The notes: generated by a model not told the origin, from the sequence alone. Shown: positions 20,863 through 40,534, counted from the whole stretch's first letter. The stretch: 62,019 nt of DNA, filler included, from 7 parts of 7 records of this genome joined end to end with filler, not necessarily neighbours in it; one strand, 5' to 3'. Numbers and translations are program-made.

Positions 20863-21027
20863 TTTAAATATACTACTTATTCTATTTGTTTTATTAGTAA
20901 AGATAGTAGAAAATCCTCAAACAGCATTGGTAAGATACCAGATTCCATTGGTAACATACAAGCTTTTTAGGTTCGGCACACAAGAAAGACTTCTTTCCTT
21001 TATACAAGTTAACCGAAAAAACAAATC

Positions 21028-21333
21028 ATGGCAATTCAGTTCAATTCTATCAATTACATTCATAATAATACAATATCTGGAGGGAGTATGATCTCTTATG
21101 AGTCAGGGCAGGAGTGGCTAATACTATTAAGAAGATTCATTCAGGAACAAGACAAAAGAAATCAAGCAATCCATGCATTATTACAAACCTTAATGGAAAT
21201 GGAAGCAACAAAGAAAGCAGACATCCTTCCTGAAATTATGGAGTTGCTGAAAGCTAACGTAAAGTATCTTGATATTTTTAAAGAAGTCATCGAAAAAGAT
21301 GGGCAGAATGGACGTGATGAAGACAACCAATAA
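21028..21333 (+). CDS. Hypothetical helical/coiled-coil protein
   Basis: 101-aa ORF with an A-rich leader typical of Bacteroidetes. Confidence 0.6.
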   Translation: MAIQFNSINYIHNNTISGGSMISYESGQEWLILLRRFIQEQDKRNQAIHALLQTLMEMEATKKADILPEIMELLKANVKYLDIFKEVIEKDGQNGRDEDNQ

Positions 21334-21363
21334 TTTTTAAAACAATAATTAAACGTTACAATT

Positions 21364-21657
21364 ATGGAAAATGCTTATTTAAAAAATCCGGAAGATGAGT
21401 GCCCCATTGATGTCAGGAAAAACAGGTTTAAAGCATCGTTTTTGGAATTTAAGGGTTATTTAGATTTGCTTATTACTATTGAGGCATTGATAAATGGTTG
21501 CATTATGGCAACTCAGGGAGATCATTATAGCCAATCTTCTGTCGATAATTCAGGCAGTGATATTCGAAAGACATTAGAGTTTGTTAGACAACTTTTGCCG
21601 ATAGAGGAAGGGGAGTATTTGGATGAATGTTATAACCTTTTGATAAAAGAACCATAA
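21364..21657 (+). CDS. Hypothetical protein
   Basis: 97-aa ORF co-oriented with its neighbours. Confidence 0.65.
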   Translation: MENAYLKNPEDECPIDVRKNRFKASFLEFKGYLDLLITIEALINGCIMATQGDHYSQSSVDNSGSDIRKTLEFVRQLLPIEEGEYLDECYNLLIKEP

Positions 21658-21669
21658 AATGTCATTTGA

Positions 21670-21804
21670 ATGAACAACACAGTTGGAAATAACCTCCGAA
21701 CACTCCACAAAAGGAAAGGGCTGACCCAAGAAGAGGTGGCAGATATGTTGCATGTCTCGCAATCTGCATACGCCCGGATGGAAAACGGTCAAACCAACCT
21801 CTGA
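21670..21804 (+). pseudogene. Truncated XRE/HTH_3 regulator
   Basis: MNNTVGNNLRTLHKRKGLTQEEVADMLHVSQSAYARMENGQTNL*; stops right after the recognition helix. Confidence 0.75.
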
Positions 21805-21858
21805 ATATTTCGGTTCTTCAGCAGAATATGCACTTCAAGTATAAAGTTGTACCAAATT

Positions 21859-21887
21859 GGGTTACCTTTTAGGCTTTACTCTATTAA
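21859..21887 (+). promoter_or_regulatory. Bipartite motif copy 1 (putative ECF promoter)
   Basis: GGGTTACC-TTTTAGGCTTTACT-CTATTAA, 18 nt before ATG 21906. Confidence 0.75.
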
Positions 21888-21905
21888 CACATAAACTTAA
21901 AGAGA

Positions 21906-22106
21906 ATGAAAGAGTTATTTAACATTTGTGTAGACATCCTTAAAGATTTGTCCGGTTACTTTGATATTAGCTATGAAGTCATTAATATTTTATTGTTTGT
22001 AATTATTCATCCTTTAATTACCGCTATTCTTTTATTTATGGTTATAAATTTATTGAGAAAGAATAGAAGATATAGACACCCACTAAGCGATAAAAATCTC
22101 AGCTGA
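21906..22106 (+). CDS. Small membrane protein (66 aa)
   Basis: ISYEVINILLFVIIHP hydrophobic helix with a basic tail; preceded by motif copy 1. Confidence 0.75.
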   Translation: MKELFNICVDILKDLSGYFDISYEVINILLFVIIHPLITAILLFMVINLLRKNRRYRHPLSDKNLS

Positions 22107-22136
22107 ATTTATAGTGAAAAGATTACTATTTGCTTT

Positions 22137-22754
22137 TTAATGTTCCTTAATCTGTTCCCAGTTCAAAATGCTTTTTATACGACTTATGCATTGTGCAAAT
22201 GTTGGTCTATGCTGTTTTATATGAGACTGAATATTATTCTCGAGCTTTATTATATCAAATTTATATCCACCTTGAATTTCTACTAAATAGTTTCTTGGAT
22301 CAATTTCGAAAAGAGATTTCGATAAGCTGTCCCCTTCTTTTAAATTACCATAATATTCAACAGTTAAATATGCTAAAAGGTCTCGTTTAGTTTTACTTTC
22401 AATCTTGAACATTCTTAAACATTCGGCAAAATCTAAATAGTCCTGACATCCCTTAAAATCAGATGACTGGTTAAAACACATGTTTATATTAGTATCCTGA
22501 TATATAGTCTGGAAATAACATCCATAAATTAGACTACACAATCTTTCTGGCATATTTTTTAGAGGTGTATCCGCTTTACCTAAAGGGATCTTCCTTTTAG
22601 TTTGACCTTCATAATCTACTTCATTAGTATATTTCTGAATTAACAGAACCTCTTCAATTTCAAAGATATTATATAGTTCATTTATCAATTTGTTAGCTAC
22701 AAAATGACCAAGTTCATGAAAAAATACGGTTTCAAGATTTTTGTTTTTTGGCAT
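22137..22754 (-). CDS. Putative standalone HExxH metallopeptidase (M41/M50-like)
   Basis: VFFHELGHFVA near the N-terminus; later GCQD resembles the M41 third-ligand region. Confidence 0.65.
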   Translation of the reverse strand: MPKNKNLETVFFHELGHFVANKLINELYNIFEIEEVLLIQKYTNEVDYEGQTKRKIPLGKADTPLKNMPERLCSLIYGCYFQTIYQDTNINMCFNQSSDFKGCQDYLDFAECLRMFKIESKTKRDLLAYLTVEYYGNLKEGDSLSKSLFEIDPRNYLVEIQGGYKFDIIKLENNIQSHIKQHRPTFAQCISRIKSILNWEQIKEH

Positions 22755-22784
22755 AAATGCAAGAGAGATAATTGGTTATTGGGT

Positions 22785-23972
22785 TTACAAACTGGAATAA
22801 GTTTTAACTATTCTAATGTAATCATTATTCAAAAGTTTAAACATACTGTTAGGCTCAGACATTCTAGAAGACACTATTAGCTTAGAAGCCTTAATTAGTG
22901 TTATTTTTCCTTTGTCAGTTACAGTAATTAAAATTTCATTTTCATCATTTATAAAAACAACATTATCAGGAATAAATTGATGGTTTTCACCCAAACTAAT
23001 TTTAATGCCTTTTCCTCCAAAAACTGTAAATCGAAAATCTATAACAGGTATTAACTTGTAATGTGCACTTTGACTATCCAAAAAGAACACTAAGCCTCCA
23101 CTATTGTTAATGCTTGTAATCGAGGTTAAGCAATCACCTTCTGATAGCTCTATTAGTCTTTTATAATCAATTTTATCACGTGCACTTCTAATAACTCTTC
23201 CTTTATTTGTTACAATGATAATTTCTGAATTGGGAGGATTAAGTATCCCAGTTACAACAGCATCATTATTCAGATGATCTAAAATTTTAGTGCTTCCATG
23301 CTGTTCATAAATATGAGATATTAAGCTAAGTACTTGGGTTAAATTCTTTTTTTGAGCTACGGCCGTTTTTGTTACTATCACTAAACTAACGCCAGTTCTG
23401 TCAAACTTCTTGTTTATTGAATAGACCTTTAATATTTTTTTTCCTTTGAGCGGAATTCTTTTTTGTTTATAAAATCTATTTACTAAATCTCTTACATTAA
23501 CCTTAAACACAGACTCATCATCAAGTACCATTAATACATTTGAATCTATTTCAGTAACTACAAAATCGGCAAAACGTTTTCTTTCTATATTAAGATTTCT
23601 TAATGCATCTAATAAATCTTCTTTATTTTCTACCCCTAAAGCTTTGTATCCACCACTCTTAGTTATAAAAAATAAAAAAACAGAATATTTAAATAAATTG
23701 ACTTGATTGCTTACAAAGTATCTTTCCTCTACTTCAGGGATAAGTATAGAGTCTATACTTTTTTCTTTATCAACATATTTCTTTTTACTATTTTTTTTAT
23801 TATAAGTTTTAGCTTTATTCTCTAAATAATCCTTACATATGATTATGACAAATACAGCCAATATAAGCATTGGTATAAACCATAAACCTTTATCAATCAA
23901 TAATACCATCCAACCCAAAAATGTTATCAACATCATCCATAATGGCGGAGAATATGATTTTTTAGCTGCCAT
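22785..23972 (-). CDS. Membrane-anchored protein with GyrA/ParC C-terminal beta-pinwheel-like repeats
   Basis: Two N-terminal TM helices; blades LVIVTKTAVAQK, IIIVTNKGRVIR..LSEGDCL, GGKGIKI, ILITVTDKGKITLI..LLNNDYI. Confidence 0.6.
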   Translation of the reverse strand: MAAKKSYSPPLWMMLITFLGWMVLLIDKGLWFIPMLILAVFVIIICKDYLENKAKTYNKKNSKKKYVDKEKSIDSILIPEVEERYFVSNQVNLFKYSVFLFFITKSGGYKALGVENKEDLLDALRNLNIERKRFADFVVTEIDSNVLMVLDDESVFKVNVRDLVNRFYKQKRIPLKGKKILKVYSINKKFDRTGVSLVIVTKTAVAQKKNLTQVLSLISHIYEQHGSTKILDHLNNDAVVTGILNPPNSEIIIVTNKGRVIRSARDKIDYKRLIELSEGDCLTSITSINNSGGLVFFLDSQSAHYKLIPVIDFRFTVFGGKGIKISLGENHQFIPDNVVFINDENEILITVTDKGKITLIKASKLIVSSRMSEPNSMFKLLNNDYIRIVKTYSSL

Positions 23973-23987
23973 ATATCATTTCTTTTA

Positions 23988-26900
23988 TTAATCTATAACC
24001 TGAAAACCAGCCCAATACACAGGATCGGGATAATTTATTTTTATTTCGTTTTGGGCTTTTTGTAAAGATTCATTCGCAGAATTACCTTTGAGGTAATGTT
24101 TATAGAATGCTACCATTAACTGGGATGTTTGTTCATCAGGAACTTTCCATAAGCTTATAATCATTGATTTAACTCCTGCTCGTTTAAATGCTCTTTGCAG
24201 ACCAAAAACTCCTTCTTGACCTTTTAGTTCGCCTAATCCTGTCTCACATGCCGATAAAACGAGCAAATCTATATTAGAGAAGTCTAAATAAGTGATTTCT
24301 TGACCTGTTAAAATGCCATCATTATTTTTATCATAACTTTTATCATGGTTTGCTCCTGCTAATAAAAGACCACACCTCATTAAAGGGTTGTCATAAACAT
24401 CCATATTTGCTCCTATTTTATTTACAATAGAGCTTCCAACAAGAAAACTCGAGTGATAATAATATCCATGTGTTGCTATATGAAGAACGTTTACATCCTG
24501 GTTTGGAATTACTCTCATTACAGATTCTGTTGCAGAATTTCCAGTATAAAGAAATGGTTCTTTGTATTCACTCTTATCAAATAATTCTTTGATTTTCACC
24601 ACTTCATCTAAAGTATATTTTAACTTGGAGAATGAACTACTGCGATTAATGTTTGATACAATATTTTCTTGTTCTTGAAGACCTGCAATGTTATTCGTAA
24701 CATTCTTTGATGTTAAATTATAATTGACTCCTCCAAATAATGCGGCTTTCATATTGTAATCCCTTTTTTTCTTATATCTAATGTTATTCGTGCTTGAAAC
24801 AATTGAAAAAGTACTTCCCATGTTTGCACTATCGAGAATAGCCGAATATGGGACTTTGTTCAATATACCTGTAGGTGAAAAATAATATTTATCATAATTA
24901 GCCATGTATTGTTTTAACGAATCGAAGATTATCTTATTAATCTTATGTTTGTTTTTACCAAACACCGCATTTATCCCATCCTTATTATTTGCTTGATCTA
25001 TATATTCATTTAGTATATTTTCATTAAATAGATAGACCAACTCAGGGGAGGTAGATTTATTATTTATAACAAGGGCATAATAGTCTATTTCATTTTCGTT
25101 ATTTTCAATTCCTTTTTTAATGGTAAAAGTTTCAATAGCTAATTCATCCATATTTAACCTATCTCTTATATTTTCCCAAGTGATTTGTCGTGGATTTACT
25201 GAGCGGAAATTATCCATGGACGTAATCTTTTTAATCAATTTCCGTTCTTTTTCAAGTATAATATTTAAGGAATCGCTATCAAATACACCTGAACTCCATT
25301 CCAAAGCTCTTCTCTTTAATTTTAATTCTTGATACTCCTTAAGTAGCCCCCCCTCCAATGTTTTCACGAAGCTTTTAAAATTCTGTTCAGATCGCAAGGC
25401 TATTTGTCGCATTGCCAGTAGATTGTTATATAAAAGCTCATTGGCCGATGAGTCTTTTAAGTCAACATAAATAGAATTAATTAAATTAAGATCTTTCTCT
25501 ACTTTTGTAACGAACAACTCCTTTTCTCCCTGGTTAAGAAATAAGAAATTGTTGATTAGCTTATGGTTAAGATTTTTTTCTATGCCTCTTAATGAAGATA
25601 TGATTTCTTCATGGTGTTGATTTTTGTCTTTTTTAAATAGTATGTTTTTAAGTAATACATCAAAGTATATTTCTTTATTATAATTAGACGAGTTTTTGAT
25701 TAAAGTTAAAGACTCCTTGTATATCTCTCTCGCTTTTTCTACCTCATCAATTTTTAAGTTAAAATCTGCTATTTGCATCAATATGGACACATAACTAATG
25801 CTATTAATACCATATTTATCCTCTATAATTCCCAGTAACGAATCATATACCTGGATAGCTTCATTAAGGTAATCCTCTCTTTCATCTATTTTCTTACCCA
25901 TGATTCTATCAAAAATTGATTTATCAAGTAGCTCTTCATTACCTCCACCTTTTTGCCATGCCAAAAAACAATAATGGGCCTTTGCATAAAGATAATTTAT
26001 ATAGATAGGGTGACCTTCATTGCGTTCCGCAATTGAAGTAGCTTTTACCAAAAGTCTCCCTGCACTATCAAAATTATCTATCAGAAGGTTACTAAGTGAG
26101 GCTGTCATTAAAAGACTGGCATAAGTTTTCGATTTCTGATTGCCTCCTTTTTCAATATATAGATTAAGGATGTTTGAGCATACAGCTTGAAATCTTCTAT
26201 AATCACCCACTCTTAATAGTCTGTCGGCGAATAACAATTGAGAATTTATCAAATAGGTTAAATCTTGTTTGCTACATGTTGCGAGCACATTTGTCAACTC
26301 TGAAAAAATATCATCAGCCTTAAAGTAATCACCTTCTCTTAATTTCAGTTCGCCAAGCGAAAGCAAAGGAAACAACAATAAATTATCCTTCTGTGAATCA
26401 ATAAGTTTATTATTTGCGATATTGATTGCTTCTTTAAACACTTTTTCAGCCTCATTTTGTGAATTGAAATATTCTAAAAGACAGAATCCGTAATTAATAG
26501 TTGCCGAATATTGTTTAACGAGGTTTACCCTTTGATCAAATTTAGTTTTCGAATATAATTGTGTCAAAAAAAAGAAATTACTAATTCTACTTCTGTTTTT
26601 AATATTGTAATATTTGCTTTCTGCTATTTCAAACGCTTTTTTATACTCTCCTGAATCTATCAACTCCTCTGTTTCTTTTATATCTTCATATTTATCTGAT
26701 AGTATTTTTGCAAAATAGAGAGAAATACCTCCAGTAGAAAAGTAATTAAAAAGAAGAATACTTGCCATAAAAACTAATGTGCAGATCAATTTAAAAATAT
26801 CCTTCATTGAAGATTTCTTTTTAAAGAAGGATTTCAATCCAGATAAAAACCAAGTAAATATTACAATAAGTAAAAAAAGAAATACTAAAGCAAATACAAG

Positions 26901-27047
26901 CGTTCTTAGGAGTTCTGTAAAATATAAAAAACCAAAAAAGCCATCAGGAGAAGCAATATACCATGTTAAATGCAAAAAACTTATTATAATATAACCAAAT
27001 ATGATTAATAAAATATATCCAGAGATGTTTTCAACTACTTTTCTCAT
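23988..27047 (-). CDS. Membrane-anchored TPR-CHAT (caspase-like) protease
   Basis: About 3 N-terminal TM helices, TPR-like helical repeats, FSPTGILNKVPY, LHIATHGYY (His), LSACETG (Cys), ISLWKVPD, YWAGF. Confidence 0.92.
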   Translation of the reverse strand: MRKVVENISGYILLIIFGYIIISFLHLTWYIASPDGFFGFLYFTELLRTLVFALVFLFLLIVIFTWFLSGLKSFFKKKSSMKDIFKLICTLVFMASILLFNYFSTGGISLYFAKILSDKYEDIKETEELIDSGEYKKAFEIAESKYYNIKNRSRISNFFFLTQLYSKTKFDQRVNLVKQYSATINYGFCLLEYFNSQNEAEKVFKEAINIANNKLIDSQKDNLLLFPLLSLGELKLREGDYFKADDIFSELTNVLATCSKQDLTYLINSQLLFADRLLRVGDYRRFQAVCSNILNLYIEKGGNQKSKTYASLLMTASLSNLLIDNFDSAGRLLVKATSIAERNEGHPIYINYLYAKAHYCFLAWQKGGGNEELLDKSIFDRIMGKKIDEREDYLNEAIQVYDSLLGIIEDKYGINSISYVSILMQIADFNLKIDEVEKAREIYKESLTLIKNSSNYNKEIYFDVLLKNILFKKDKNQHHEEIISSLRGIEKNLNHKLINNFLFLNQGEKELFVTKVEKDLNLINSIYVDLKDSSANELLYNNLLAMRQIALRSEQNFKSFVKTLEGGLLKEYQELKLKRRALEWSSGVFDSDSLNIILEKERKLIKKITSMDNFRSVNPRQITWENIRDRLNMDELAIETFTIKKGIENNENEIDYYALVINNKSTSPELVYLFNENILNEYIDQANNKDGINAVFGKNKHKINKIIFDSLKQYMANYDKYYFSPTGILNKVPYSAILDSANMGSTFSIVSSTNNIRYKKKRDYNMKAALFGGVNYNLTSKNVTNNIAGLQEQENIVSNINRSSSFSKLKYTLDEVVKIKELFDKSEYKEPFLYTGNSATESVMRVIPNQDVNVLHIATHGYYYHSSFLVGSSIVNKIGANMDVYDNPLMRCGLLLAGANHDKSYDKNNDGILTGQEITYLDFSNIDLLVLSACETGLGELKGQEGVFGLQRAFKRAGVKSMIISLWKVPDEQTSQLMVAFYKHYLKGNSANESLQKAQNEIKINYPDPVYWAGFQVID

Positions 27048-27050
27048 TAT

Positions 27051-28223
27051 TTAAAACCATCGTAATTCTCCTAATATATCATCAGCTTCAGATGAAAACT
27101 TACTTGTTTGAATTAATTTTGAACTTAAAATCCCTTTAGCTTTTTTAAGTTCCCCTTTTTTAATGTAACCAAGGGCTAAGTAAAATTGAACTTCAATTTC
27201 AAACTTATAATAAGCTACATTAGTTAAATAATTAAAATTATTAATCGCCTTTTCAACTTCATTAGAATTTAGTTGGGCTAGGGCTAAATAGAAAAGAACT
27301 TGACGATTATCTTCCTTCGGATTTATTTCTGTCAAAACTAGCTTAGCATTAGTATATTCTCCTTTTTTTATTTCTTCTATAGCCTTAAAAATTGCAAGTG
27401 ATTGTTGTTTGGTATAACTTGTATCTCCCTTAATAACTGGTCTAAAAGGCTCAAAATCTCTCGAAATATTATTATTCAAAGAAAGGTTGAATTCTACTAC
27501 ATCTAATCCTCCAAATTGATCAATATCCTTAATGTTTGATAAATTGCTCTTATAATTATTAAAAATCATTTCATTTGATGATTTATGCGGTTGCCACACA
27601 ATAAATCCAATTACTATTGCAGCAGCGACACTAGAATATTTTAACCATAATGAAATAATCTTAGTTTCTTTTTTATTTTTAGCAGGCTTTTCAGCTGTTG
27701 GTTCAGCTCTTTTTTCTAAAATAACATCTTTTTTTACTTCCCTGTTCCATGTTTGTATTTTCTCCCTCAGGTCTTCCCGGGCTTTTTGTTTTACGGCATT
27801 TTCAATGTCCTTTTCACTGGGTTGAAACGTTACTCTTTGATATGCCAATGGCAGTTCTTCTTTAATCCTATTTCGTTCTGCCTTGGTAATGACATTTCTT
27901 AACGTTTTTAAATAATGTACCCGTTTAACGAAGTCTTGACTCTGCGTTAAAATTTCCGATGTTTTTGAAATGTTTCCAAGCACGTAATCTTCAGCCACCT
28001 CTTCAATGAAATTCCTGTACAGTTTAGGGAGTTGAAAAATGAGTTTTTCAGGATCATTCAATTCAAGCTTGTAAATTTCTGTGTACAATGGTTTTTGATT
28101 GCTTTTAAATACCACAAATCCATTAAGAACCTCATCCCAATTTACCCTTTCCAAATGCTCAGGTGGTATAGAATTGCTTAAAATATCTTTTATGATTCTT
28201 ATTCCTCTTTCCATTTTAGGCAT
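27051..28223 (-). CDS. Putative anti-sigma factor: cytoplasmic domain, one TM helix, C-terminal TPR
   Basis: WLKYSSVAAAIVIGFIVW TM; FYLALAQL and FYLALGYI TPR motifs; overlaps the sigma gene by 8 nt. Confidence 0.8.
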   Translation of the reverse strand: MPKMERGIRIIKDILSNSIPPEHLERVNWDEVLNGFVVFKSNQKPLYTEIYKLELNDPEKLIFQLPKLYRNFIEEVAEDYVLGNISKTSEILTQSQDFVKRVHYLKTLRNVITKAERNRIKEELPLAYQRVTFQPSEKDIENAVKQKAREDLREKIQTWNREVKKDVILEKRAEPTAEKPAKNKKETKIISLWLKYSSVAAAIVIGFIVWQPHKSSNEMIFNNYKSNLSNIKDIDQFGGLDVVEFNLSLNNNISRDFEPFRPVIKGDTSYTKQQSLAIFKAIEEIKKGEYTNAKLVLTEINPKEDNRQVLFYLALAQLNSNEVEKAINNFNYLTNVAYYKFEIEVQFYLALGYIKKGELKKAKGILSSKLIQTSKFSSEADDILGELRWF

Positions 28224-28818
28224 TTAAATAATTGAAAGCCAATTTTTCTAACCGTTTTTGGCATTTTGCCTTTTGGTTTTTTGCATTAGCCGGATTCGTA
28301 TATCCGAAAATCTCAGACAGCTCTTTCATAGATTTTTTGTGATACCAAAACAATGTAAGCAGCTCATAGCATTTTCCTCCGGCGTTTTTCATTTCGGTAA
28401 GGGCATTTTCCATAGCCTTAAATTGTTCTTCATTTTCGGCCTCCACATCAACCAGTGTATCCGTTACCGCACCATCAAATTGTAAATGCTCTCCATTATT
28501 GTCAAAATCTTCAAGGCTTATATTCTGTTTATTCTTTTTAAATCTATTTAATAGTTGAAACCTGCAAACAGAACTTAGATAAGTTTGAATGGATGCTGTA
28601 AGTTTAAAATTTCCTTCAAGGATTTTTTCATATAACACCATAACGGCATCGTTGAATACTTCGTCTAGGTCTGTATCAAAACTGTTATTTGAGCCTTTTA
28701 CCTTATGCATGAACATGATGCAGTAATCGTAGCATCGTTTATAAATGACCCCTAAATAATCTGAATCATCTTTAATCAATTCAATAAGTTCCTGATCTGA
28801 AATTTGGTGTATGTCCAT
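28216..28818 (-). CDS. ECF-type sigma-70 factor
   Basis: SDQELI, DEVFNDAVMVLYEK, TYLSSVCR (region 2), KSMKELSEIFGYTNPANAKNQKAKC (region 4). Confidence 0.92.
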   Translation of the reverse strand: MDIHQISDQELIELIKDDSDYLGVIYKRCYDYCIMFMHKVKGSNNSFDTDLDEVFNDAVMVLYEKILEGNFKLTASIQTYLSSVCRFQLLNRFKKNKQNISLEDFDNNGEHLQFDGAVTDTLVDVEAENEEQFKAMENALTEMKNAGGKCYELLTLFWYHKKSMKELSEIFGYTNPANAKNQKAKCQKRLEKLAFNYLNA

Positions 28819-28992
28819 TAGTTTATTTGTGATGGTTGTATTAGTTCTTCACAAAATAAACAAAATATTGCAAATTTTACATTTGATTTTCCACAAGTCG
28901 TTCAAACATAACCGGTCTCTTCATATTTGAAGAAGCCCGGCTTTGTTTATCATTACTGATAAATCTATGTTGTAGAATTATATTAGCACGTC

Positions 28993-29481
28993 TTATAGTC
29001 TTGTGTCATAATTGTACGTACTAACACGATTATCCTTACCGCCCAAAATTTGCCGAGTAAGTCGAACTTTTTCCATATAGGCTTTCGCAAACTTTACTGG
29101 GTCTACAATATTATTTGTTCGGTAGGTTGATGTATTTTTATAAGTCGATTTGCTCTCATCAGAAAGAGAGGGCATACTTGGAAGTGATAAAGCCGGCTGA
29201 TATATTCTACCTTGCCCTGTGTGAGGATAAGGGTTTGAGATAGTATTCCTTCTTGTATTAGAATATGATCCTTCTCTTGGTTTCGTGCCCGCTTTACCTG
29301 TATATGGATTTACATTGCCAACTGTACTCCAATTATCGTTTACGGTGTGGTTGGGAGCGGTTCTGTAATGTGGTTGAACATACGTTCCATTACTTTTGTA
29401 ATATCCTTTTACATATACTTGTTGTGAAAATCCGAAATAACCGGTTAATAAAAATACTGCGATAAATAATAAATTTTTCAT
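28993..29481 (-). CDS. Secreted protein with a VKGYYKSNGTYVQPHYRTAP / NWST-GNVNPYTG motif
   Basis: Signal peptide followed by a conserved basic motif and a low-complexity tail. Confidence 0.8.
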   Translation of the reverse strand: MKNLLFIAVFLLTGYFGFSQQVYVKGYYKSNGTYVQPHYRTAPNHTVNDNWSTVGNVNPYTGKAGTKPREGSYSNTRRNTISNPYPHTGQGRIYQPALSLPSMPSLSDESKSTYKNTSTYRTNNIVDPVKFAKAYMEKVRLTRQILGGKDNRVSTYNYDTRL

Positions 29482-29521
29482 GATACTAATTTTAAAATGT
29501 TTTACTGTTTTTTTACATCTG

Positions 29522-29550
29522 TTAATAGCTCTTTTTTGAAGAGGTAACCC
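29522..29550 (-). promoter_or_regulatory. Bipartite motif copy 2 (putative ECF promoter)
   Basis: Minus strand GGGTTACC-TCTTCAAAAAAGAG-CTATTAA, 40 nt before ATG 29481. Confidence 0.75.
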
Positions 29551-29551
29551 A

Positions 29552-29755
29552 CTAATTGCATGGTAATTTATATAATAGCTCTCCTTCTAATGTCACTATC
29601 TTATATGCAAGGAAATTTTTAGTCCCCCTAATGGCAGAAATTTGTTTTTTGGCATATTCAAGAGCTTTGGTTACGCTCAACATTAATGCTACATTTTCAG
29701 GATAATCGCATTGATAGTTTTGAAGATTATTATACGATTTCAATTTTACTTTCAT
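29552..29755 (-). CDS. Small hypothetical protein (67 aa)
   Basis: ORF preceded by motif copy 3 and an A-rich leader. Confidence 0.65.
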   Translation of the reverse strand: MKVKLKSYNNLQNYQCDYPENVALMLSVTKALEYAKKQISAIRGTKNFLAYKIVTLEGELLYKLPCN

Positions 29756-29801
29756 GTTTTTGGATTTTAAGTTTGTACTCGTTTAGTTTGTTTTTCAACT
29801 A

Positions 29802-29830
29802 TTAATAGCCATAACTTAAAAAGGTAACCC
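29802..29830 (-). promoter_or_regulatory. Bipartite motif copy 3 (putative ECF promoter)
   Basis: Minus strand GGGTTACC-TTTTTAAGTTATGG-CTATTAA, 46 nt before ATG 29755. Confidence 0.75.
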
Positions 29831-29851
29831 ACTATCTTCGTTTTTTTTAAG

Positions 29852-29882
29852 AAAAAGAAGACTGCTTATAAAAACAGTCTTC
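29852..29882 (-). terminator. Intrinsic terminator of the 32569-29937 operon
   Basis: GAAGACTG-N10-CAGTCTTC stem followed by TTTTT on the minus strand. Confidence 0.6.
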
Positions 29883-29936
29883 AAAAAACAAACATAAAAC
29901 CCTCAAACCTACGGGTATTGTTACAGATAAAATGAA

Positions 29937-30428
29937 TTAGTTCTTTTGATAAACATCAAGGTCTAATGAGCCTTCAACAAAACCTTTATAAATAAGGATC
30001 TCGAGATCTTCCGGTATAATTTTAATGATGAAATGATTTCCCTGCGGCTTTTTAATTATCTTCATTTCTACGCTTGCGTTACCTTGATCAGCATTATAAG
30101 AATTCCAATATTTCCAATAAAATGTTAATCTTTGATTGTTATATCCATCCCTATCATAGAAAGGAGTGTCCAAAGTAAGATTATAGATTATCCCATTACT
30201 ATATGAATCTGCTTTTGGCCAAACATTAGCAAAATAGATTTCTTTATCTCCCTTATATTGGTAAAAAGCAAGAAAAGCATTTTTTGACAAAAGTTGAGAG
30301 GTTATATCTTTTCCATCCATTGTAGCGTCCATAATTACAAACCTTCCCATTACATCAACATTGTCTTGTGCTGTGCCAAATAAGGCGGTAAGCAACACTA
30401 TTACAAATAGAATCCATGTTTTATTCAT
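29937..30428 (-). CDS. Secreted beta-rich hypothetical protein
   Basis: Signal peptide (..GTAQD); 163 aa. Confidence 0.8.
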   Translation of the reverse strand: MNKTWILFVIVLLTALFGTAQDNVDVMGRFVIMDATMDGKDITSQLLSKNAFLAFYQYKGDKEIYFANVWPKADSYSNGIIYNLTLDTPFYDRDGYNNQRLTFYWKYWNSYNADQGNASVEMKIIKKPQGNHFIIKIIPEDLEILIYKGFVEGSLDLDVYQKN

Positions 30429-30449
30429 GATTATACTGGCTTTAAGGTT

Positions 30450-31292
30450 TTACAACATACTTAAAAGCTTCGAACTCATTTGAGATTCAGAACCATCTAG
30501 AATAAATTTATAATCATCCGCGCCTGATTCTTTTAACCATTTATCCCAGAAATAGATAAGCTTTTGTGTTTGCAATACGTCTAGGTCATTTTTACTAGAA
30601 ATGCCAGAGATTATCCAATGAATGCCTTTAGGAAGTTTGATAGGGAATAGGCCATAATCACTACTTCTGGCTTTTTGTTTCCAATCAATACCGGTAATTT
30701 TGTTTAGAAATTGGGTGCTTGTATATCTGTTCTTTTGTTTCAGGACGTGCCCTCTATTTTCAAAATCAAAATATCCATCTGTTAGTATTATAACTGTATT
30801 ATCATATCCTTCCAGTTGTAAAGACTGTCCGTAATCATTCAAATAAGCCCACAAATCCACACCGAAATAGCCATTTCTTTTGTCACTGTAGTTTGCTTTA
30901 TCTCTTAATTCACTCAATGTTTTGGTAATGGAATTTGAAAATTCAACCATTTTATTATTCTTGTCCTTGATTGACATTTCATTAAGTTTTAATTGGAGCA
31001 TATTCTCAAAATAGTTAATGTCCAAAGGGCTATTTTTTTGAGGAACTATTTTTACACTAAATCGGTCTTTGGAAGTTAAGATTAAGCCTCTTCTGGCTTT
31101 AGCCTCAAATTTTTCAAATAATTGTTCTATTTGAGCTTGGTCTTTTTCCAATTGGTGTTCAGAAAGTATTCTATCACTTAGGTCTAATATTACGGTATAA
31201 TTGACCGGTTTTCTTATGGTTTGAGCCTGTGCATTTATTTTCAATGATGAGAATGCTATGAACAGAATACTAATAATAACTATATTTTTCAT
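30450..31292 (-). CDS. Secreted vWA-like protein
   Basis: Signal peptide; VILDLSDR (MIDAS-like DxS) and IILTDG. Confidence 0.7.
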   Translation of the reverse strand: MKNIVIISILFIAFSSLKINAQAQTIRKPVNYTVILDLSDRILSEHQLEKDQAQIEQLFEKFEAKARRGLILTSKDRFSVKIVPQKNSPLDINYFENMLQLKLNEMSIKDKNNKMVEFSNSITKTLSELRDKANYSDKRNGYFGVDLWAYLNDYGQSLQLEGYDNTVIILTDGYFDFENRGHVLKQKNRYTSTQFLNKITGIDWKQKARSSDYGLFPIKLPKGIHWIISGISSKNDLDVLQTQKLIYFWDKWLKESGADDYKFILDGSESQMSSKLLSML

Positions 31293-31318
31293 GATGTTTG
31301 TTTTTAATGGTTATTGTA

Positions 31319-32569
31319 TTAATTAAGGTTAGGGATTTGTTTAAAATGGGTCTCCATAAATTCTTTGTAAGCAGATTCGCATTCTACTTTTTTAACATCA
31401 AAGTCGGGAGAGCTGTTCAAGTATTGTCGCCAACCCATATAGAAGCTAGTTAAGCACTGTGATAGTAGATCAGGGTTAAGAACAGCTTTTTCCAAATCTT
31501 TCTTTAAGTTTTCAATTCTTCCAACCAACATACTGATCTGTGATTCCAATTGGATTACTTTTTCTTTAAGACCTTTTATTTCATCTTTTTGAGAACGAAT
31601 CTTACTTTTAAGATCTCTAATGACCAATTGAGCACAGGTTCCAGCATTTTTCTTATTCTTTTCCTTTATCATTAACTCATACATATATCCCCAAACTAAA
31701 TAGGCCAAAAAGCCAAATGTTAAGACCAAATAAAAATTAATACTGGTTAAAAAGAACCAATTTTCTTCGGCTACACCCGCCATGACTTTTAAATTGTAAA
31801 TACCTGAATCAATTTTGTATGCCAATAATGAATCCACTATTAAAGCACCGAGAATTGCAATCGCCTTCCACAGATTTTTACGTTTTCCTTCAAAAGTGTG
31901 GGGAATTAAACCAACGGCAAAAAAGAGAAATGACCCTAAATAGACAATAATAAGGGAGGGCGAAGGTGTGAGAATCCCTTTCATATCAAAAATTGAATCA
32001 AGGTATAGTATTATATCATCCCCTGCTGTAGCTAACAAACTATTAGCATTCCTAAAAAATGAAGCATAAATTGTTGACGCATAAAATAGAATAAGATAAA
32101 CAGAAAGTACTCCCACTAAAATACCATAGGTTGCTAATTTGATTGGTTGGTATCCTGTTTGAAGTTTTTTCTCTTCCAAGTCCAATTTTGTCTGATGGAT
32201 TTCATCGTTAAGCTCGTCTATTTTTTGGTTACATGAGGGAATATGGATTTCTATGGTAGTTTTCTTTTCACTTTCTAACTTTTCTTTTTCCTCATGCTTG
32301 CTGGTAATCTCTTCATGGGTTTTTTCTTTTCGGGTTTCGTGCTCCTTTTCATTGTATGTAGCATCAACTACATGCCCATCTTTAATCCATTTTAGATGCA
32401 TTTTCATGGAGGTAGCGTCTCCATTGTTCAAACCAGCTTTTTGAATTGCATAATCTGTAAAACTTTTTACACGTTCTACTTTCTTGAATGAGCCCTCAGT
32501 CTCATCTACTGAATTGCTTGTTTCTGTTAAAGTTTCCATTTTTCTGTTTAATGATTTTAAAAGTTTCAT
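31319..32569 (-). CDS. Multi-TM protein with two long coiled coils
   Basis: N-terminal coiled coil, about 4 TM helices, C-terminal coiled coil, FYMGW; start may be 32539. Confidence 0.82.
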   Translation of the reverse strand: MKLLKSLNRKMETLTETSNSVDETEGSFKKVERVKSFTDYAIQKAGLNNGDATSMKMHLKWIKDGHVVDATYNEKEHETRKEKTHEEITSKHEEKEKLESEKKTTIEIHIPSCNQKIDELNDEIHQTKLDLEEKKLQTGYQPIKLATYGILVGVLSVYLILFYASTIYASFFRNANSLLATAGDDIILYLDSIFDMKGILTPSPSLIIVYLGSFLFFAVGLIPHTFEGKRKNLWKAIAILGALIVDSLLAYKIDSGIYNLKVMAGVAEENWFFLTSINFYLVLTFGFLAYLVWGYMYELMIKEKNKKNAGTCAQLVIRDLKSKIRSQKDEIKGLKEKVIQLESQISMLVGRIENLKKDLEKAVLNPDLLSQCLTSFYMGWRQYLNSSPDFDVKKVECESAYKEFMETHFKQIPNLN

Positions 32570-32587
32570 GATGTTTTTGTTTTGCTC

Positions 32588-32616
32588 TTAATAGCGGGAA
32601 TGGAAAAAGGTAACCC
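32588..32616 (-). promoter_or_regulatory. Bipartite motif copy 4 (putative ECF promoter)
   Basis: Minus strand GGGTTACC-TTTTTCCATTCCCG-CTATTAA, 18 nt before ATG 32569. Confidence 0.75.
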
Positions 32617-32784
32617 TAACATGAATGTTTTTTAGCTTACTGAATTGATCTACTTATGAGAAAAAGAATATTTTTGTATTTCATTAATGTCTTTAATCAA
32701 TTATAATGTAAAGAGATACTTTTCTATATATGTGGACTTAGGAAAAGAAATGACAACTTATAAATAGAATAATTAACTGAATAA

Positions 32785-34287
32785 ATGAGTGAAAGACAAA
32801 ATATAGAATGGAAGAAAATTTGGCATGATGATTATCTTAAATGGGTCTGTGGGTTTGCGAATGCCATAGGAGGGGTTATTTATATCGGTAAAGATGATAA
32901 TGGAAATGTTGTGCATCTAGAAAACTATCAAGCCTTAATGGAATACATCCCTAACAAGATACGTAGTCTTATGGGGATTATTTGTGATGTTAATTTGTTG
33001 GAGGAAAATGCTAATAAATATATCGAGATAAAAGTCAATCCTTATTCTGTGCCAGTCTCATTAAGAGGAAGGTACTATTACCGTTCGGGGAGTGTAAAAT
33101 CTGAGCTTACTGGTATAGAGCTGAATGAATTTTTACTTAAAAAAGCCGGTAAAACATGGGATGATGTTGTAGAAGAAGGGGCAGGTATTCAAGATATTGA
33201 TGATGGTAGTATCAATCAATTTATTGAGGATAGTAGGGAAAAAGGTAGATTACCTGATACTACGGGATTAAGTTCTTTGCAAATATTAGATAAACTTCGT
33301 TTAACAGAAAAAGGTAAGCTAAAAAGAGCTGCATTAATTCTTTTTGGAAAAGATCCAAATCGTTTTTACCCAAATGTTATGGTAAAAATAGGACGTTTTG
33401 GGATAGACAGTTCTGATTTAAAGTTTCAGGAAGTTGTAGAGGGTAATTTAGTCCATTTGCTTAATGAAGTTCAGGTGCAGTTAAATTATAAGTTTTTAAC
33501 CCGTCCTGTTGATTTTGCAGGTTTGCATCGTATTGAAAAAGGAGAATACCCAGTGGCTGCCTTACGTGAAATGTTATTGAACGGTTTGGTTCATAAAACG
33601 TATATGGGGACATCGATTCAAATTAGGGTATATGATGATAAACTATCTATTTGGAATGAAGGAGTGCTGCCTCAAGGACTAGATTTAGAAAGTTTAAAAA
33701 GTGAACACAATTCAAGACCAAGAAATCCTAAAATTGCAGATTCTTGTTTTAAATCCGGTTATATAGATACTTGGGGGAGGGGGACTCTAAAAATTATCAA
33801 TTCATGTAAAGAAGCAGCACTTCCTGAACCCGAAATTATTGAGAAAGATGGGGGAGTACAAGTTACTTTGTTTAAAAAAAACCAAGAGAGTAGTCCAGTA
33901 AAAATTGAAAATAACTTATTAGAAATTCAAAGAGCTTTTGGAGCCATTTCAGACCGGATAAAACTTGGAGCAGATAAGAATAAAGAATTTCTACGGGAAC
34001 ATTTTGAGGTGATTGCAGAAGAGCTTCGAGAAAGCTTCAGGTTAACTTCAGGAAAGCTTCATGAAAGCTTCGGGTTAACTTCAGGAAAGTATATATCTAA
34101 TACTGCTTTAACATTAGAGTTAATAACTATAACTCCTGAGATTAAGGCAGAGGAGATAGGGGCAATCCTAGATGTTTCTGAGAGAACAGTACAAACCTAT
34201 CTTAAAAAATTAAAAGAGGATGATTTTATCGAAAGAATTGGCGGAAGGAAAGAAGGCTATTGGCAAATAATAAAACAAGATTCTTGA
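32785..34287 (+). CDS. AlbA_2 (Schlafen-like) + HATPase_c_4 + C-terminal HTH protein
   Basis: EWKK, GFANAIGGVIYIGKDDNG, YYRSGS, ALREMLLNGLVHK, PRNPKIA, C-terminal wHTH ..RIGGRKEGYW. Confidence 0.88.
   Translation: MSERQNIEWKKIWHDDYLKWVCGFANAIGGVIYIGKDDNGNVVHLENYQALMEYIPNKIRSLMGIICDVNLLEENANKYIEIKVNPYSVPVSLRGRYYYRSGSVKSELTGIELNEFLLKKAGKTWDDVVEEGAGIQDIDDGSINQFIEDSREKGRLPDTTGLSSLQILDKLRLTEKGKLKRAALILFGKDPNRFYPNVMVKIGRFGIDSSDLKFQEVVEGNLVHLLNEVQVQLNYKFLTRPVDFAGLHRIEKGEYPVAALREMLLNGLVHKTYMGTSIQIRVYDDKLSIWNEGVLPQGLDLESLKSEHNSRPRNPKIADSCFKSGYIDTWGRGTLKIINSCKEAALPEPEIIEKDGGVQVTLFKKNQESSPVKIENNLLEIQRAFGAISDRIKLGADKNKEFLREHFEVIAEELRESFRLTSGKLHESFGLTSGKYISNTALTLELITITPEIKAEEIGAILDVSERTVQTYLKKLKEDDFIERIGGRKEGYWQIIKQDS
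34022..34087 (+). repeat. In-frame 33-nt tandem repeat (x2)
   Basis: AGCTTCGAGAAAGCTTCAGGTTAACTTCAGGAA / AGCTTCATGAAAGCTTCGGGTTAACTTCAGGAA. Confidence 0.85.
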
Positions 34288-34353
34288 AATTAACTTTTTG
34301 AATTGATCCGAAATCAATCAAAATCTGTCACCTTTTTTGACACCCAAAAAATA

Positions 34354-34389
34354 AAAACCCCTGTAAAAACGATGTTTTACAGGGGTTTT
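34354..34389. terminator. Hairpin terminator between the tRNA and the island
   Basis: AAAACCCCTGTAAAA ... TTTTACAGGGGTTTT. Confidence 0.8.
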
Positions 34390-34391
34390 AA

Positions 34392-34419
34392 GTACTCGAG
34401 GCGGGACTTGAACCCGCAC
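34392..34419 (-). tRNA. 3' part of a tRNA (probably tRNA-Leu), cut at contig end
   Basis: Minus strand GTGCGGGTTCAAGTCCCGCCTCGAGTAC gives T-arm and acceptor stem; anticodon not present. Confidence 0.8.
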
Positions 34420-34519
34420 NNNNNNNNNNNNNNNNNNNNNNNNNNNNNNNNNNNNNNNNNNNNTTAATTAATTAANNNNNNNNNNNNNNNNNNNNNNNNN
34501 NNNNNNNNNNNNNNNNNNN
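34420..34519. other. Artificial contig spacer
   Basis: N44-TTAATTAATTAA-N44. Confidence 0.99.
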
Positions 34520-35089
34520 GTGCTTCAGGTCGTAACCGGCGTTGTTTTTCAGCATCTGATTCATGCTGCTGAGAATGCGCCCGTCGGCCAGCACCACCTC
34601 CAGTCCCAGCACCTGCTCGCGCGCCATACCATAGCGGATAACCTGGTTGCCACCGGCGTTGGTGGCGATATTGCCACCGATAGTGGCGCTGCCCCGTGCA
34701 CCGAGATCAAGCGCGAACATCAGGCCTGCCGTTTCGGCCCGTTGTTGTACCAGCTGCAGAGGGGCCCCAGCCTGAACAGTCATGGTGCCATTGATGAGGT
34801 CGACAGACTCAAGGGCGGTCATGCGCTCCAGTGAAATGACCAGCTCATCACTGCTGCTCACGCAACCTCGGGTCATGTTGGTACAACCGCCGTGAGTGAC
34901 CACTTTTTGCCCTGCGGCGAAACAGTGTTTCATCACTTCACTGAGTTGACTGGTATTGGTGGGTCGAATAATCGCGGGTGCGCGGCATTCGGATGCTCCC
35001 CAGCCATCGGTAACCCGTTCAGAAATACCGTTTTCGATAATACCCTGAGGATCCAAAATTTTCCGTAATCTTGCGAGCAGCTCATTCAT
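34520..35089 (-). CDS. FAD-binding oxidoreductase (D-2-hydroxyacid dehydrogenase type), 5' part
   Basis: GGCTNM, LDLGARGSATIGGNIATNAGG, KNNAGYDLKH. Confidence 0.9.
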
Positions 35090-35204
35090 TGCCCAGTGGT
35101 CCTGTTTGTGCGTGGCAGGTATGCGGGGTTTTGCCGCTTATGGCCCGGTTAAAATTGCCATAGCCACCATCAACCATTTTGCAGCATACATACAGTCATA
35201 ATAT

Positions 35205-36683
35205 CTAGGACGGTAACTTCATACCAACTACCGTGATCTCGCGATTATCGAGTTGTCGCACCACAAAGATAGCTGTGCCAATGTTCACCTTGTCGCCGAT
35301 AATGGGTGGTCGGCGCAATTGTCCGGCAATCCAGCTGCCAAGATTCTGGTCGGCATCCGGGGGTTCCGGCAAGTCATAGAACTGGCAGATTTCCCCCAGG
35401 GGAATTCTGCCATCCAGCACAAAATCCCCGAACACCCTGCGGAAGTTTTTCCTGTCATCCTTTTCCGGTAGTACCAGTCCCAGTCGTCGTGCCACCCAGG
35501 CGAGGCTGCCCCCCTGCAACAGCAATGAGGTTGCTACGACCACAAAAGCAACATTGAAAAGGGTTTTTGCTCCCTCCAGATCCACCATCATGGGAAAAAT
35601 AGCAAGCACGACCGGCACTGCACCGCGAAGGCCTACCCAGGCGATAAAAAATGTTTCCCTGCGTGTGAAGTGAAATGGCAGCAGGCACAGCGACACAGCT
35701 AGTGGGCGCGCAACCAGAATCAGTAACAGCGCGATACCCAGTGCCGGAAGCAGACCGTCTGCCACCTCGCTGGGGGTGACCAGCAAGCCCAGCAGCAGGA
35801 ACATCAGGGCCTGGGACAGCCAGGCAAAGCCATCCATTGCTGACAGGGCCTGGCGAACGCTCCGGCGAGCCCGGTTGCCCACCATCAGGCCGAACAGGTA
35901 GATCGCGAGAAATCCCGAACCGCCCACCCAGGTGGCAAAGGCAAATACGCCAATACCGGCTGACATCAATAGCAGGGCGAGTATTCCGGCACCGCTGTCC
36001 AGCATACCCCGAATACGGTTGACGGCGCTGGCCATGGCGATGCCGGCCAGGTAGCCGATCAGCCCGCCTATACCAAACTGCGTGGTCAGGCTGAGCAGGG
36101 TGGTCCAGCCATTGAAAGCCAGCGTCTCGCCAGCGTTATAAATCAGGGCGATACTGATAAACGTCAGGGTGAGGTAGACCGCCATTGGGTCGTTCATGCC
36201 GGACTCGATTTCCAGCGTGGCGGCGACCCGCTCGTTGAGTCGCACGCCGCAGGATTTGAGCAGGGAAAACACGGCGGCGGCATCGGTGGAGCCGACGATC
36301 GCGCCCAGCAACATGGCCATTGGCCAGCTGAGCCCCAGCAGCCACATGGCGGCGAGGCCCGTGAGGCCCGCGGACAGTAATACGCCGAGTGTCGCCAGTA
36401 TCAGTGACGGTTTGAGTCCGGTGCGAAAAGTGGCAAAGTCGGTGCGCAGTCCACCATCCACCAGAATGACGGCAAGGGCGATGTTACCCACCCAGAAGCT
36501 CAGTGCAAAATTGTCAAAACTGATACCACCTATGCCGTCCTCGCCACTTAGCATACCGACAATGAGAAAAACCAGCAGAAAAGGAAAACCGACCCGCGAT
36601 GAAATGATGCCGGCAAATACTGCCACAAAAATCAGTGCTGCTGCGGCCATTAAGGGTAGGGCAAGGAAGTCGAGTGATAGCAT
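35205..36683 (-). CDS. cvrA: K+/H+ antiporter NhaP2/CvrA type (short form)
   Basis: GSTDAAAVFS, EIESGMNDP, GLRGAVP; C-terminal CorC-like domain. Confidence 0.88.
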   Translation of the reverse strand: MLSLDFLALPLMAAAALIFVAVFAGIISSRVGFPFLLVFLIVGMLSGEDGIGGISFDNFALSFWVGNIALAVILVDGGLRTDFATFRTGLKPSLILATLGVLLSAGLTGLAAMWLLGLSWPMAMLLGAIVGSTDAAAVFSLLKSCGVRLNERVAATLEIESGMNDPMAVYLTLTFISIALIYNAGETLAFNGWTTLLSLTTQFGIGGLIGYLAGIAMASAVNRIRGMLDSGAGILALLLMSAGIGVFAFATWVGGSGFLAIYLFGLMVGNRARRSVRQALSAMDGFAWLSQALMFLLLGLLVTPSEVADGLLPALGIALLLILVARPLAVSLCLLPFHFTRRETFFIAWVGLRGAVPVVLAIFPMMVDLEGAKTLFNVAFVVVATSLLLQGGSLAWVARRLGLVLPEKDDRKNFRRVFGDFVLDGRIPLGEICQFYDLPEPPDADQNLGSWIAGQLRRPPIIGDKVNIGTAIFVVRQLDNREITVVGMKLPS

Positions 36684-36807
36684 GTTCTTCCTCAGGGGTT
36701 AGTCGGTATTTTCATGGTCGCCGCGTGACAATCAATAACAGTTTAATCTGTGAGGACAATTGGATGCTAGCGGGACAGCACGCGGCTCCAATCGAATAGG
36801 AGTGGGG

Positions 36808-37770: not shown

Positions 37771-37840
37771 GAAAAATCCTTGTCTGGAGGATGGCGTATA
37801 GCGGGGTAGACATGTCCCGCTATTCACTAACAGGTATTAT

Positions 37841-39031: not shown

Positions 39032-39091
39032 AATACTATCTCCTGTTGATGAGCGAATGGGCAAGTGGTTTGTTGTGGGTTTTGCCGCAGC

Positions 39092-39712: not shown

Positions 39713-39770
39713 GGTGGGTGTCCTAATTGATCTGGGTATCAGTTTGCGTATCAGTGTCAGGAATTCCGGT

Positions 39771-40373: not shown

Positions 40374-40391
40374 TGAGTATCCGAAGATATT

Positions 40392-40424: not shown

Positions 40425-40534
40425 AAAATGCAAGCGGTGATTCGGTTTTTAGCGGCGTGGCGATGTCAGATGTTGTCTGTTATTGCCTCCCTTCATTCTT
40501 AACCAGATTGTCAGGAGAATCGGGGTAGAACCCA

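Follow-up and report, generated by a model that had tools for sequence, protein, structure and literature searches.

We analysed a window of 62,019 nucleotides, a stretch of DNA in which seven parts of seven records of one genome are joined end to end with filler. Within this window lies a module of about 10.8 kb (21859-32616). At its centre is a five-gene operon that starts with a sigma factor of the extracytoplasmic function (ECF) type, a candidate anti-sigma factor and a membrane-anchored TPR-CHAT protease. Around the operon are four copies of a promoter motif and the genes that these copies precede.

The operon and its three core proteins

Calling open reading frames (ORFs) on the window yields five genes on the minus strand, exactly where the initial annotation had placed them. 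These are the sigma gene (28818..28216, 200 aa), the anti-sigma candidate gene (28223..27051, 390 aa), the TPR-CHAT gene (27047..23988, 1019 aa), a gene for a protein with a beta-pinwheel-like domain (23972..22785, 395 aa) and the gene of an M41-like HExxH protein (22754..22137, 205 aa). The sigma and anti-sigma genes overlap by 8 nt; gaps of 3, 15 and 30 nt follow in order. The ORFs, the overlap and the gaps are thus all reproduced, and the picture of five tightly coupled genes with these products stands. We reject chance adjacency of the five genes.

The module also exists elsewhere. A 10,884-bp contig of a relative with about 91% identity corresponds to exactly positions 21858-32616 of the window and has the same gene order. 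The stretches of two small genes, p162 and p67 (described below), are replaced in it, and its flanks differ from the window past both ends. The same span between unlike flanks supports the integrity of the module. The cluster, which comes from a flavobacterium, is a real, conserved and mobile system. Short contigs from three runs, guessed to be RNA but not recorded as such, overlie stretches of the genes for the sigma, the anti-sigma candidate, CHAT, the pinwheel protein and p280, and transcription is not inferable from them.

The sigma factor is of the ECF type and belongs to a divergent clade. It matches the NCBIfam model TIGR02937 (sigma70-ECF) over residues 25-192 at 48.7 bits, for a cut-off of 42.9, and the sigma factor family phrog_1740 at 6.6e-6. 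Pfam returns no match to it even at E<=10, the sigma r2 and r4 models included. The same r2 and r4 models do match a relative (locus L071) that matches the window's sigma at 2.2e-13. Like other ECF (group IV) sigma factors, the protein has sigma-2 and sigma-4 regions only, in about 200 aa. A bipartite promoter of its own and an anti-sigma factor co-transcribed with it also appear to be present: the motif is found at this locus only and accompanies the sigma clade, and the overlapping gene, for a protein with one transmembrane (TM) segment, is conserved. Across 36 relatives (alignment A6), three cysteines of the sigma (C85, C150 and C186) do not vary, which is unusual for an ECF sigma factor. 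They might form a metal or redox site.

The product of the overlapping gene is assigned to no known family. In a hydropathy scan it has a single hydrophobic segment, at residues 189-207. Weak TPR matches at 308-367 all fall under the Pfam cut-offs. The predicted layout is a cytoplasmic N-domain of 188 aa, one TM segment and a periplasmic C-domain with TPRs. Residues 1-188 contain no cysteine. The gene that immediately follows the sigma gene downstream codes for a homologue in 45 of the 61 non-redundant related loci that have at least 300 nt available downstream. Judged by the gene overlap, the single TM segment, the weak TPRs and this linkage, the 390-aa protein is probably the anti-sigma factor of the operon's sigma. 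A complex prediction for the sigma with residues 1-188, in which the alignments prepared here were unused, gave run scores of 0.00, 0.47 and 0.00, which speak neither for nor against binding.

The TPR-CHAT protease is the product of the third gene. Its CHAT domain (PF12770) occupies residues 703-1017 (E 1.5e-46). An intact His/Cys dyad had been described for it, and rightly so: H860, G861 and C934 are invariant across 16 aligned homologues (alignment A1). The dyad is retained in 34 of 39 sigma-linked CHAT C-termini, and the five exceptions include ORFs that run to the end of a contig. The kept dyad argues for selection on catalysis.

The same protein has three N-terminal TM segments (8-26, 50-68 and 84-102), which the initial annotation does not mention. 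The loop that precedes the third segment, KSFFKKKSSMKD, is positively charged. By the positive-inside rule, this loop places the TPR-CHAT part outside the cytoplasm. All 31 complete sigma-linked CHAT relatives listed have either a hydrophobic N-terminus, signal-peptide-like by eye, or the same three-TM anchor. The TPR-CHAT domain is therefore predicted to be periplasmic. Together, the export signals or anchor and the kept dyad suggest that an active protease shares a compartment with the C-domain of the anti-sigma candidate.

A promoter motif confined to the locus

The window has four copies of the motif GGGTTACC-N14-CTATTAA, and 100 shuffles of it have none. All four copies are intergenic and directed at genes. 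They lie upstream of p66 (21859..21887, plus strand), p162 (29522..29550, minus strand), p67 (29802..29830, minus strand) and p416 (32588..32616, minus strand), the first gene of a p416-p280-p163 unit. The nearest genome, G001 (4.5 Mb, 99% complete), was scanned as well. It contains four copies genome-wide, all at the module locus, and none of the reversed control motif. The claim that the motif marks envelope and secreted genes is borne out.

Related loci carry the motif, too. In 80 of them (671 kb), a relaxed form occurs 89 times, compared to 6 times for the reversed control. It precedes homologues of p162 16 times, the sigma gene itself 13 times, and p163 and p416 five times each. Loci L028 and L008 have five and four copies, respectively. 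Across G001 the relaxed motif has 38 sites versus 58 for the control and hence no genome-wide enrichment. We therefore claim no regulon members beyond the locus. A scan for the sigma-70 consensus was uninformative (63 sites, 55.9 expected). From the position and distribution of the motif, we consider it very likely that the motif serves as promoter for the sigma, which would thereby drive the genes around it. Such an easily recognised promoter allows the regulon to be read directly from sequence.

The putative regulon consists of small proteins and one larger unit. On the plus strand, convergent with the operon, p66 (21906..22106) encodes a small protein of 66 aa with one TM segment in a hydropathy scan; a similar ORF is present in one related locus (L111). 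The other genes are on the minus strand. The small protein p162 (28993..29481, 162 aa) has a signal-like hydrophobic N-terminus, by which it would be secreted, and a conserved N-terminal motif. It is the most widely shared regulon member, with homologues in 26 of 72 related loci. The small protein p67 (29552..29755, 67 aa) is soluble and has homologues in loci L085 and L110-L112. The N-terminal motif of p162 matches phrog_29674 (4.8e-21), and p67 matches phrog_33107 (1.1e-8). Both are PHROG families of unknown function; thus phages encode relatives of two regulon proteins.

The p416-p280-p163 unit is closed by a terminator-like hairpin (29857..29882, minus strand; hairpin scan). Its last gene, p163 (29937..30428), encodes a protein of no known family that is secreted according to a hydropathy scan and has homologues in 10 of the 72 loci. 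The middle gene, p280 (30450..31292; homologues in 12 of 72), encodes an exported protein. Its AlphaFold2 (AF2) model, with a predicted local distance difference test (pLDDT) score of 85, has 151 Foldseek hits in the PDB at E<=1e-3. Von Willebrand A (vWA) domains are on top (best 3.6e-6), and we assign the modelled protein to the vWA fold. LDLSDR and TDGYxDFE are invariant in its alignment (A8), and several relatives have lipoprotein-like signals. The metal ion-dependent adhesion site (MIDAS) of vWA domains has the consensus DxSxS...T...D. The invariant residues of p280 (D37-L-S39-D-R and T171-D172-G) fit this consensus only partly.

The first gene of the unit, p416 (31319..32569; homologues in 15 of 72), encodes a protein with four TM segments (hydropathy scan) and coiled coils at both the N- and the C-terminus. 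Pfam returned only coiled-coil noise for 13 homologues of p416; DUF4407 matched solely an added protein from locus L008. The 4-TM coiled-coil protein, the vWA lipoprotein and the p162 family are conserved proteins of unknown function that the module puts forward as outputs.

One related locus has a further gene beside its p280 homologue (L152:7255-7737, minus strand). It matches a PADLOC model of the SNc+LTD nuclease type (C3a212) at 2.9e-13. By this match, nuclease effectors may in some cases be part of the regulon in this sigma clade.

Recurrence of the core and its sister clade

The sigma/anti-sigma/CHAT core, the promoter motif and several regulon genes recur in metagenomes. A single metagenome scan with the sigma alignment gives 169 sigma relatives, so the family is abundant in environmental Bacteroidota. 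A sigma-profile scan of viral contigs found no relative. Twenty-four related loci from metagenomes extend downstream of the sigma gene for 4.5 kb or more; 22 of these contain a CHAT gene, and 19 of the same 24 contain an extra exported TPR protein. Conversely, generic Bacteroidota TPR-CHAT loci have a sigma gene operonically upstream in 7 of 77 cases. The neighbourhood survey thus confirms the proposed linkage of sigma, TPR and CHAT genes. The anti-sigma candidate and the TPR-CHAT protein are separate ORFs in all related loci listed. Five loci (L014, L112, L129, L152 and L158) have two or more CHAT paralogues.

The sigma factor has a sister clade. Its members score 108-134 bits in 33 of 401 genomes of the phylum, and in two other families every genome sampled has one (21 of 21 and 7 of 7). 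The sister-clade sigma is seldom linked to CHAT (2 of 12 loci). The adjacent downstream gene encodes a protein of 358-392 aa (for example L197:10142-11284, from loci L197-L203), and all six that were scanned have a C-terminal trypsin-like peptidase domain (Trypsin_2, 1e-21 to 1e-27). The anti-sigma profile weakly matches four such partners. They may be protease-fused anti-sigma factors. Since the domain is found in six out of six, a partner gene that is coupled to an extracytoplasmic protease seems to be a recurring feature of the sigma lineage.

Two genes appended in this lineage

The last two genes of the operon are not part of the recurring core. Both are absent from all 72 non-redundant loci of the sigma clade and from all 77 generic TPR-CHAT loci. 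They persist in close relatives, for example in the contig with about 91% identity. We reject them as the core of the system; the two genes that the initial annotation calls extra lie outside its conserved part.

The 395-aa protein consists of a hairpin of two TM segments, a lysine-rich stretch and a pinwheel-like domain, which would be cytoplasmic. Its matches to the C-terminal domains of GyrA and ParC are weak: 5e-4 and 19.9 bits to DNA_gyraseA_C (PF03989), under the cut-off of 27, and 3.5e-4 to the ParC model NF004044. The match to PDB entry 3no0 (1.3e-3) is no better than that to unrelated NEAT domains. No profile of the GyrA/ParC pinwheel thus matches above its family cut-off. An ESM Atlas model (predicted TM-score, pTM, 0.67) has a TM-score of 0.76 to GyrA C-terminal domains over residues 89-395. 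Hence of the proposed pinwheel-like membrane protein, the membrane part is now specified as a two-TM hairpin and the pinwheel has a model in its favour, but the profile matches stay under cut-off. The modelled domain resembles the GyrA/ParC C-terminal pinwheel, with weak sequence evidence. Unlike GyrA and ParC, the protein is fused to a TM hairpin and has no topoisomerase core. The protein is rare. A word-indexed search finds two proteins, an exhaustive phmmer search of 1.84 billion representatives yields one strong relative only, and the gene is present in 1 of 151 genomes of the family.

The 205-aa protein contains HELGH at residues 13-17, invariant in all six homologues compared, as is fitting for the HExxH protein that had been proposed. 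D105 is invariant as well. The protein is modelled as a soluble, standalone FtsH-type (M41-like) metallopeptidase domain. Its AF2 model has a pLDDT of 85.5, and the top seven VIA-align rows for this model are protease-domain chains of FtsH or FtsHi (Z 10.9-8.8; best unrelated row 6.9). In the ESM Atlas, the protein has TM-scores of 0.57-0.62 to Peptidase_M41. Foldseek against the PDB returned nothing for the model at E<=1e-3, PF01434 did not match at E<=10, and a PDB sequence search gave nothing useful. The model thus suggests an HExxH zinc site in an FtsH-type fold, and like FtsH the protein has the HExxH at the start of the domain. Unlike FtsH, it has no AAA+ ATPase module and no TM segment. 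Without these and without a PF01434 match, the protein is M41-like in fold and not a member of the family. It has seven homologues in all and is found in 1 of 401 genomes of the phylum.

A proposed split relative of a known sigma switch

The closest known system is DdvS/DdvA of Myxococcus xanthus. We set the module beside it by description. In the passages cited here, DdvA is described as a periplasmic TPR-CHAT fused to a zinc anti-sigma domain in one protein, self-removal of CHAT is proposed to let RseP cut the anti-sigma factor, and DdvS drives four local promoters (PMC11506125). Three helices are absent from DdvA. Both systems combine an ECF sigma factor with a single-pass anti-sigma factor, here a candidate. 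In both, a TPR-CHAT with a His/Cys dyad lies on the periplasmic side, here by predicted topology. The few promoters of the sigma are in its immediate neighbourhood, and the location is accessory or island-like.

There are also clear differences. In DdvA anti-sigma and TPR-CHAT are one chain, whereas here they are two polypeptides encoded 3 nt apart. The CHAT protein here has its own three-TM anchor (a signal peptide in relatives). DdvA has a CHCC zinc domain of about 70 aa; the N-domain here has 188 aa and is free of cysteine. The DdvS regulon consists of CBASS and CRISPR genes, whereas the regulon here encodes envelope and secreted proteins of unknown function. The phylum differs, too: the module is from Bacteroidota, and the same passages place DdvA-like proteins only in Myxococcota and one Comamonas (PMC11506125). 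New compared to DdvA are thus the separation of the protease from the protein that is its likely target, the lack of a zinc domain and the envelope-protein regulon.

Our literature search for a periplasmic CHAT with an anti-sigma factor found only the DdvA work and no description of a Bacteroidota system. In the ECF classification, the words 'CHAT' and 'caspase' are absent from the main text (PMC7826278); its supplementary tables, which list group contexts, may already include this sigma clade. PDB searches with the sigma profile, the CHAT protein and the CHAT profile returned neither a DdvS nor a DdvA chain and nothing useful.

Taken together, we read the module as a self-contained, mobile envelope-signalling unit that could be a split version of the DdvS/DdvA-type switch. 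At rest, the one-TM anti-sigma factor of the overlapping gene would keep the ECF sigma at the inner membrane. A periplasmic cue would then activate the separate TPR-CHAT cysteine protease, which is anchored in the inner membrane and faces the periplasm. CHAT would cut the periplasmic part of the anti-sigma factor and so take the role of a site-1 protease. The housekeeping site-2 protease and cytoplasmic proteases would complete the breakdown; an M50 site-2 protease is present in G001. The freed sigma would transcribe from the four local promoters. The output would be the 4-TM coiled-coil protein, the exported vWA protein and the small secreted or membrane proteins. Both the signal and the physiological output of this scheme are inferred. 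The pinwheel and M41-like proteins, as additions of this lineage, would most likely have their role on the cytoplasmic side; they might, for instance, remove the anti-sigma fragment after its release, which is a guess.

The scheme resembles RseA/DegS/RseP, where the periplasmic part of a one-TM anti-sigma factor must also go before the site-2 protease acts. Classical regulated intramembrane proteolysis (with DegS) employs a housekeeping serine protease, and self-cleaving anti-sigma factors (RsgI SEAL, FoxR type) cut themselves without an enzyme. Here, the candidate for the site-1 step is a caspase-like cysteine protease that is dedicated to it and encoded in the operon. For DdvA, the claim that CHAT is a site-1 protease is hard to test because the protease forms a single chain with its substrate and no signal is known for it. 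The split architecture turns this idea into a question of cleavage in trans.

Weighing the alternatives

That CHAT triggers the release of the sigma by cutting the anti-sigma factor is, by analogy with DdvA, an evenly poised proposition. Several points weigh against it. Sigma/anti-sigma binding and the cleavage by CHAT are both inferred. In DdvA the autoproteolysis of CHAT is only proposed, and in the cited passages dyad mutants have no phenotype in the absence of the signal (PMC11506125). The topology was read from hydropathy in a simple scan and from the positive-inside rule rather than from a dedicated predictor. No known anti-sigma family matches the N-domain of the anti-sigma candidate, in which the DdvA zinc motif is also missing. 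A second CHAT gene or a further periplasmic TPR protein is common in related loci; hence the substrate could be something other than the anti-sigma factor. Finally, no motif lies directly upstream of the window's sigma gene. Thus positive autoregulation, as seen in 13 relatives, is not evident here.

In a different view of the protease, it is an output of the switch. It would then be a periplasmic processing or effector protease for the maturation or degradation of secreted regulon proteins (p162, p163, p280) or of foreign envelope proteins, and the anti-sigma factor would be inactivated otherwise, by a housekeeping site-1 protease or by partner switching. CHAT is encoded downstream in the sigma operon and so is produced along with the regulators, exported proteins abound in the regulon, and two or more CHAT paralogues in several relatives fit diversifying effectors. 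Cleavage of the anti-sigma factor by CHAT is itself putative. Yet CHAT is linked to the sigma/anti-sigma pair (22 of 24 loci) and not to any single regulon gene (p416 in 15 of 72, p280 in 12, p162 in 26), and the partners of the sister-clade sigma have their own protease domain. The only studied parallel, as far as its cited passages go, also has the TPR-CHAT on the anti-sigma factor itself (PMC11506125). We consider an output protease unlikely, if still worth weighing. A non-catalytic role is a doubtful alternative. Here the TPR-CHAT would mainly be a sensor or scaffold that shields the periplasmic domain of the anti-sigma factor from the site-2 protease until a ligand releases it. The bulky TPR-CHAT of DdvA does block RseP, and as long as cells are unstimulated its dyad mutants do not differ from wild type, according to the passages cited (PMC11506125). 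Large TPR arrays are typical binding scaffolds, too. A mere shield does not sit well with the dyad, which is kept in 34 of 39 sigma-linked CHATs (contig-end ORFs are among the exceptions) and in 16 of 16 in alignment A1.

The initial annotation had drawn its analogy from type III-E CRISPR systems, the Craspase (Cas7-11, Csx29, Csx30, Csx31 and RpoE). There the TPR-CHAT protein Csx29 cleaves Csx30, which controls an ECF sigma factor (PMC10028731). The genetic coupling of a TPR-CHAT to an ECF sigma and a proteinaceous inhibitor is indeed common to both. By this analogy, CHAT would cut a Csx30-like inhibitor of the sigma in the cytoplasm. The compartment is wrong, however. The Craspase is cytoplasmic, RNA-guided and CRISPR-linked, whereas the protease here has three N-terminal TM segments, and 31 of 31 listed relatives have an export-like N-terminus or the same anchor. 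The shared periplasmic compartment points to the arrangement of DdvA rather than to cytoplasmic Csx29/Csx30. The partner is a one-TM protein, unlike the soluble Csx30. A PADLOC check of nine locus proteins found no Cas family, and thus neither Cas7-11/gRAMP; no dedicated scan for a CRISPR array was made. The five operon proteins have no PADLOC match at all, and the only match is a weak coiled-coil one of p416 to LmuB. The system is thus CRISPR-independent as had been claimed, as far as these nine proteins go. We reject the cytoplasmic mechanism, which is highly improbable, on the TM and export signals of CHAT, the lack of Cas proteins and the one-TM partner.

Genomic context and a possible link to defence

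The window is a mosaic compared to G001. Only positions 20863-34419, 40664-55592 and 55693 onwards match at 99-100%. The housekeeping genes at 13.7-20 kb match G001 at only about 70%, at other places there. Positions 1-11000 and 34420-40660 of the window have a GC content of 55-60%, versus about 31% elsewhere in the window, and no match in G001. Its low-GC blocks correspond to four widely separated places there. The window appears to be chimeric or strongly rearranged, and the flanks outside 20863-34419 are unsafe as context. We therefore use G001 for the genomic context.

In G001 the module lies between rodA and mutS in an island of about 20 kb (G001:C1, about 1408741-1428900; loci L165 and L166). 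The island contains a tyrosine integrase, a MobA/VirD2 relaxase, DUF6730, an XRE regulator, an insertion sequence (IS) and a Schlafen/AlbA_2-ATPase-helix-turn-helix gene. The IS (DDE transposase) is absent from the window.

Defence genes are found beside relatives of the module. Of 110 neighbouring ORFs taken from 12 large related loci, 19 match PADLOC. Eight matches are very strong and lie in five loci: DndC with DndD/PbeC, DpdE with DruE, PDC-S45, PDC-S15, a type III restriction enzyme and SoFic. As a control, 110 ORFs of seven sister-clade loci give 15 matches, none below 1e-40, and six of the 15 are the trypsin-domain partner. Strong defence genes thus lie beside relatives in 5 of 12 loci versus 0 of 7 control loci, a small sample of loci that are not independent. 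Together with the integrase/relaxase island, these neighbours make a link to defence testable.

A more far-reaching and rather improbable reading is that the module is a horizontally mobile, CRISPR-independent immune or conflict sensor of Bacteroidota. CHAT would detect an envelope cue of an invader, such as phage entry or a competitor's effector, and destroy the anti-sigma factor in trans. The private regulon would then remodel or permeabilise the envelope. In this lineage, the membrane-tethered, DNA-wrapping pinwheel and the ATPase-less FtsH-like peptidase would form a second, cytoplasmic arm for sensing or clearing.

Three observations concern the surroundings of the module in the window. 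Adjoining it is a gene for a 500-aa protein (32785-34287, plus strand) with Schlafen/AlbA_2, HATPase_c_4 and helix-turn-helix domains; the same gene lies at the edge of the G001 island. On the other side, between the regulatory genes of the island and the module (21028-21792), are two plus-strand ORFs (101 and 97 aa) and a minus-strand ORF of 72 aa, which by eye encodes an XRE-type helix-turn-helix. These small ORFs may be a regulatory or toxin-antitoxin-like pair. Farther away, a repeat of about 125 bp (about 55420-55545) has more than 40 scattered copies in G001 at 79-86% identity and looks like a miniature inverted-repeat transposable element (MITE) or a repetitive extragenic palindromic (REP) element.

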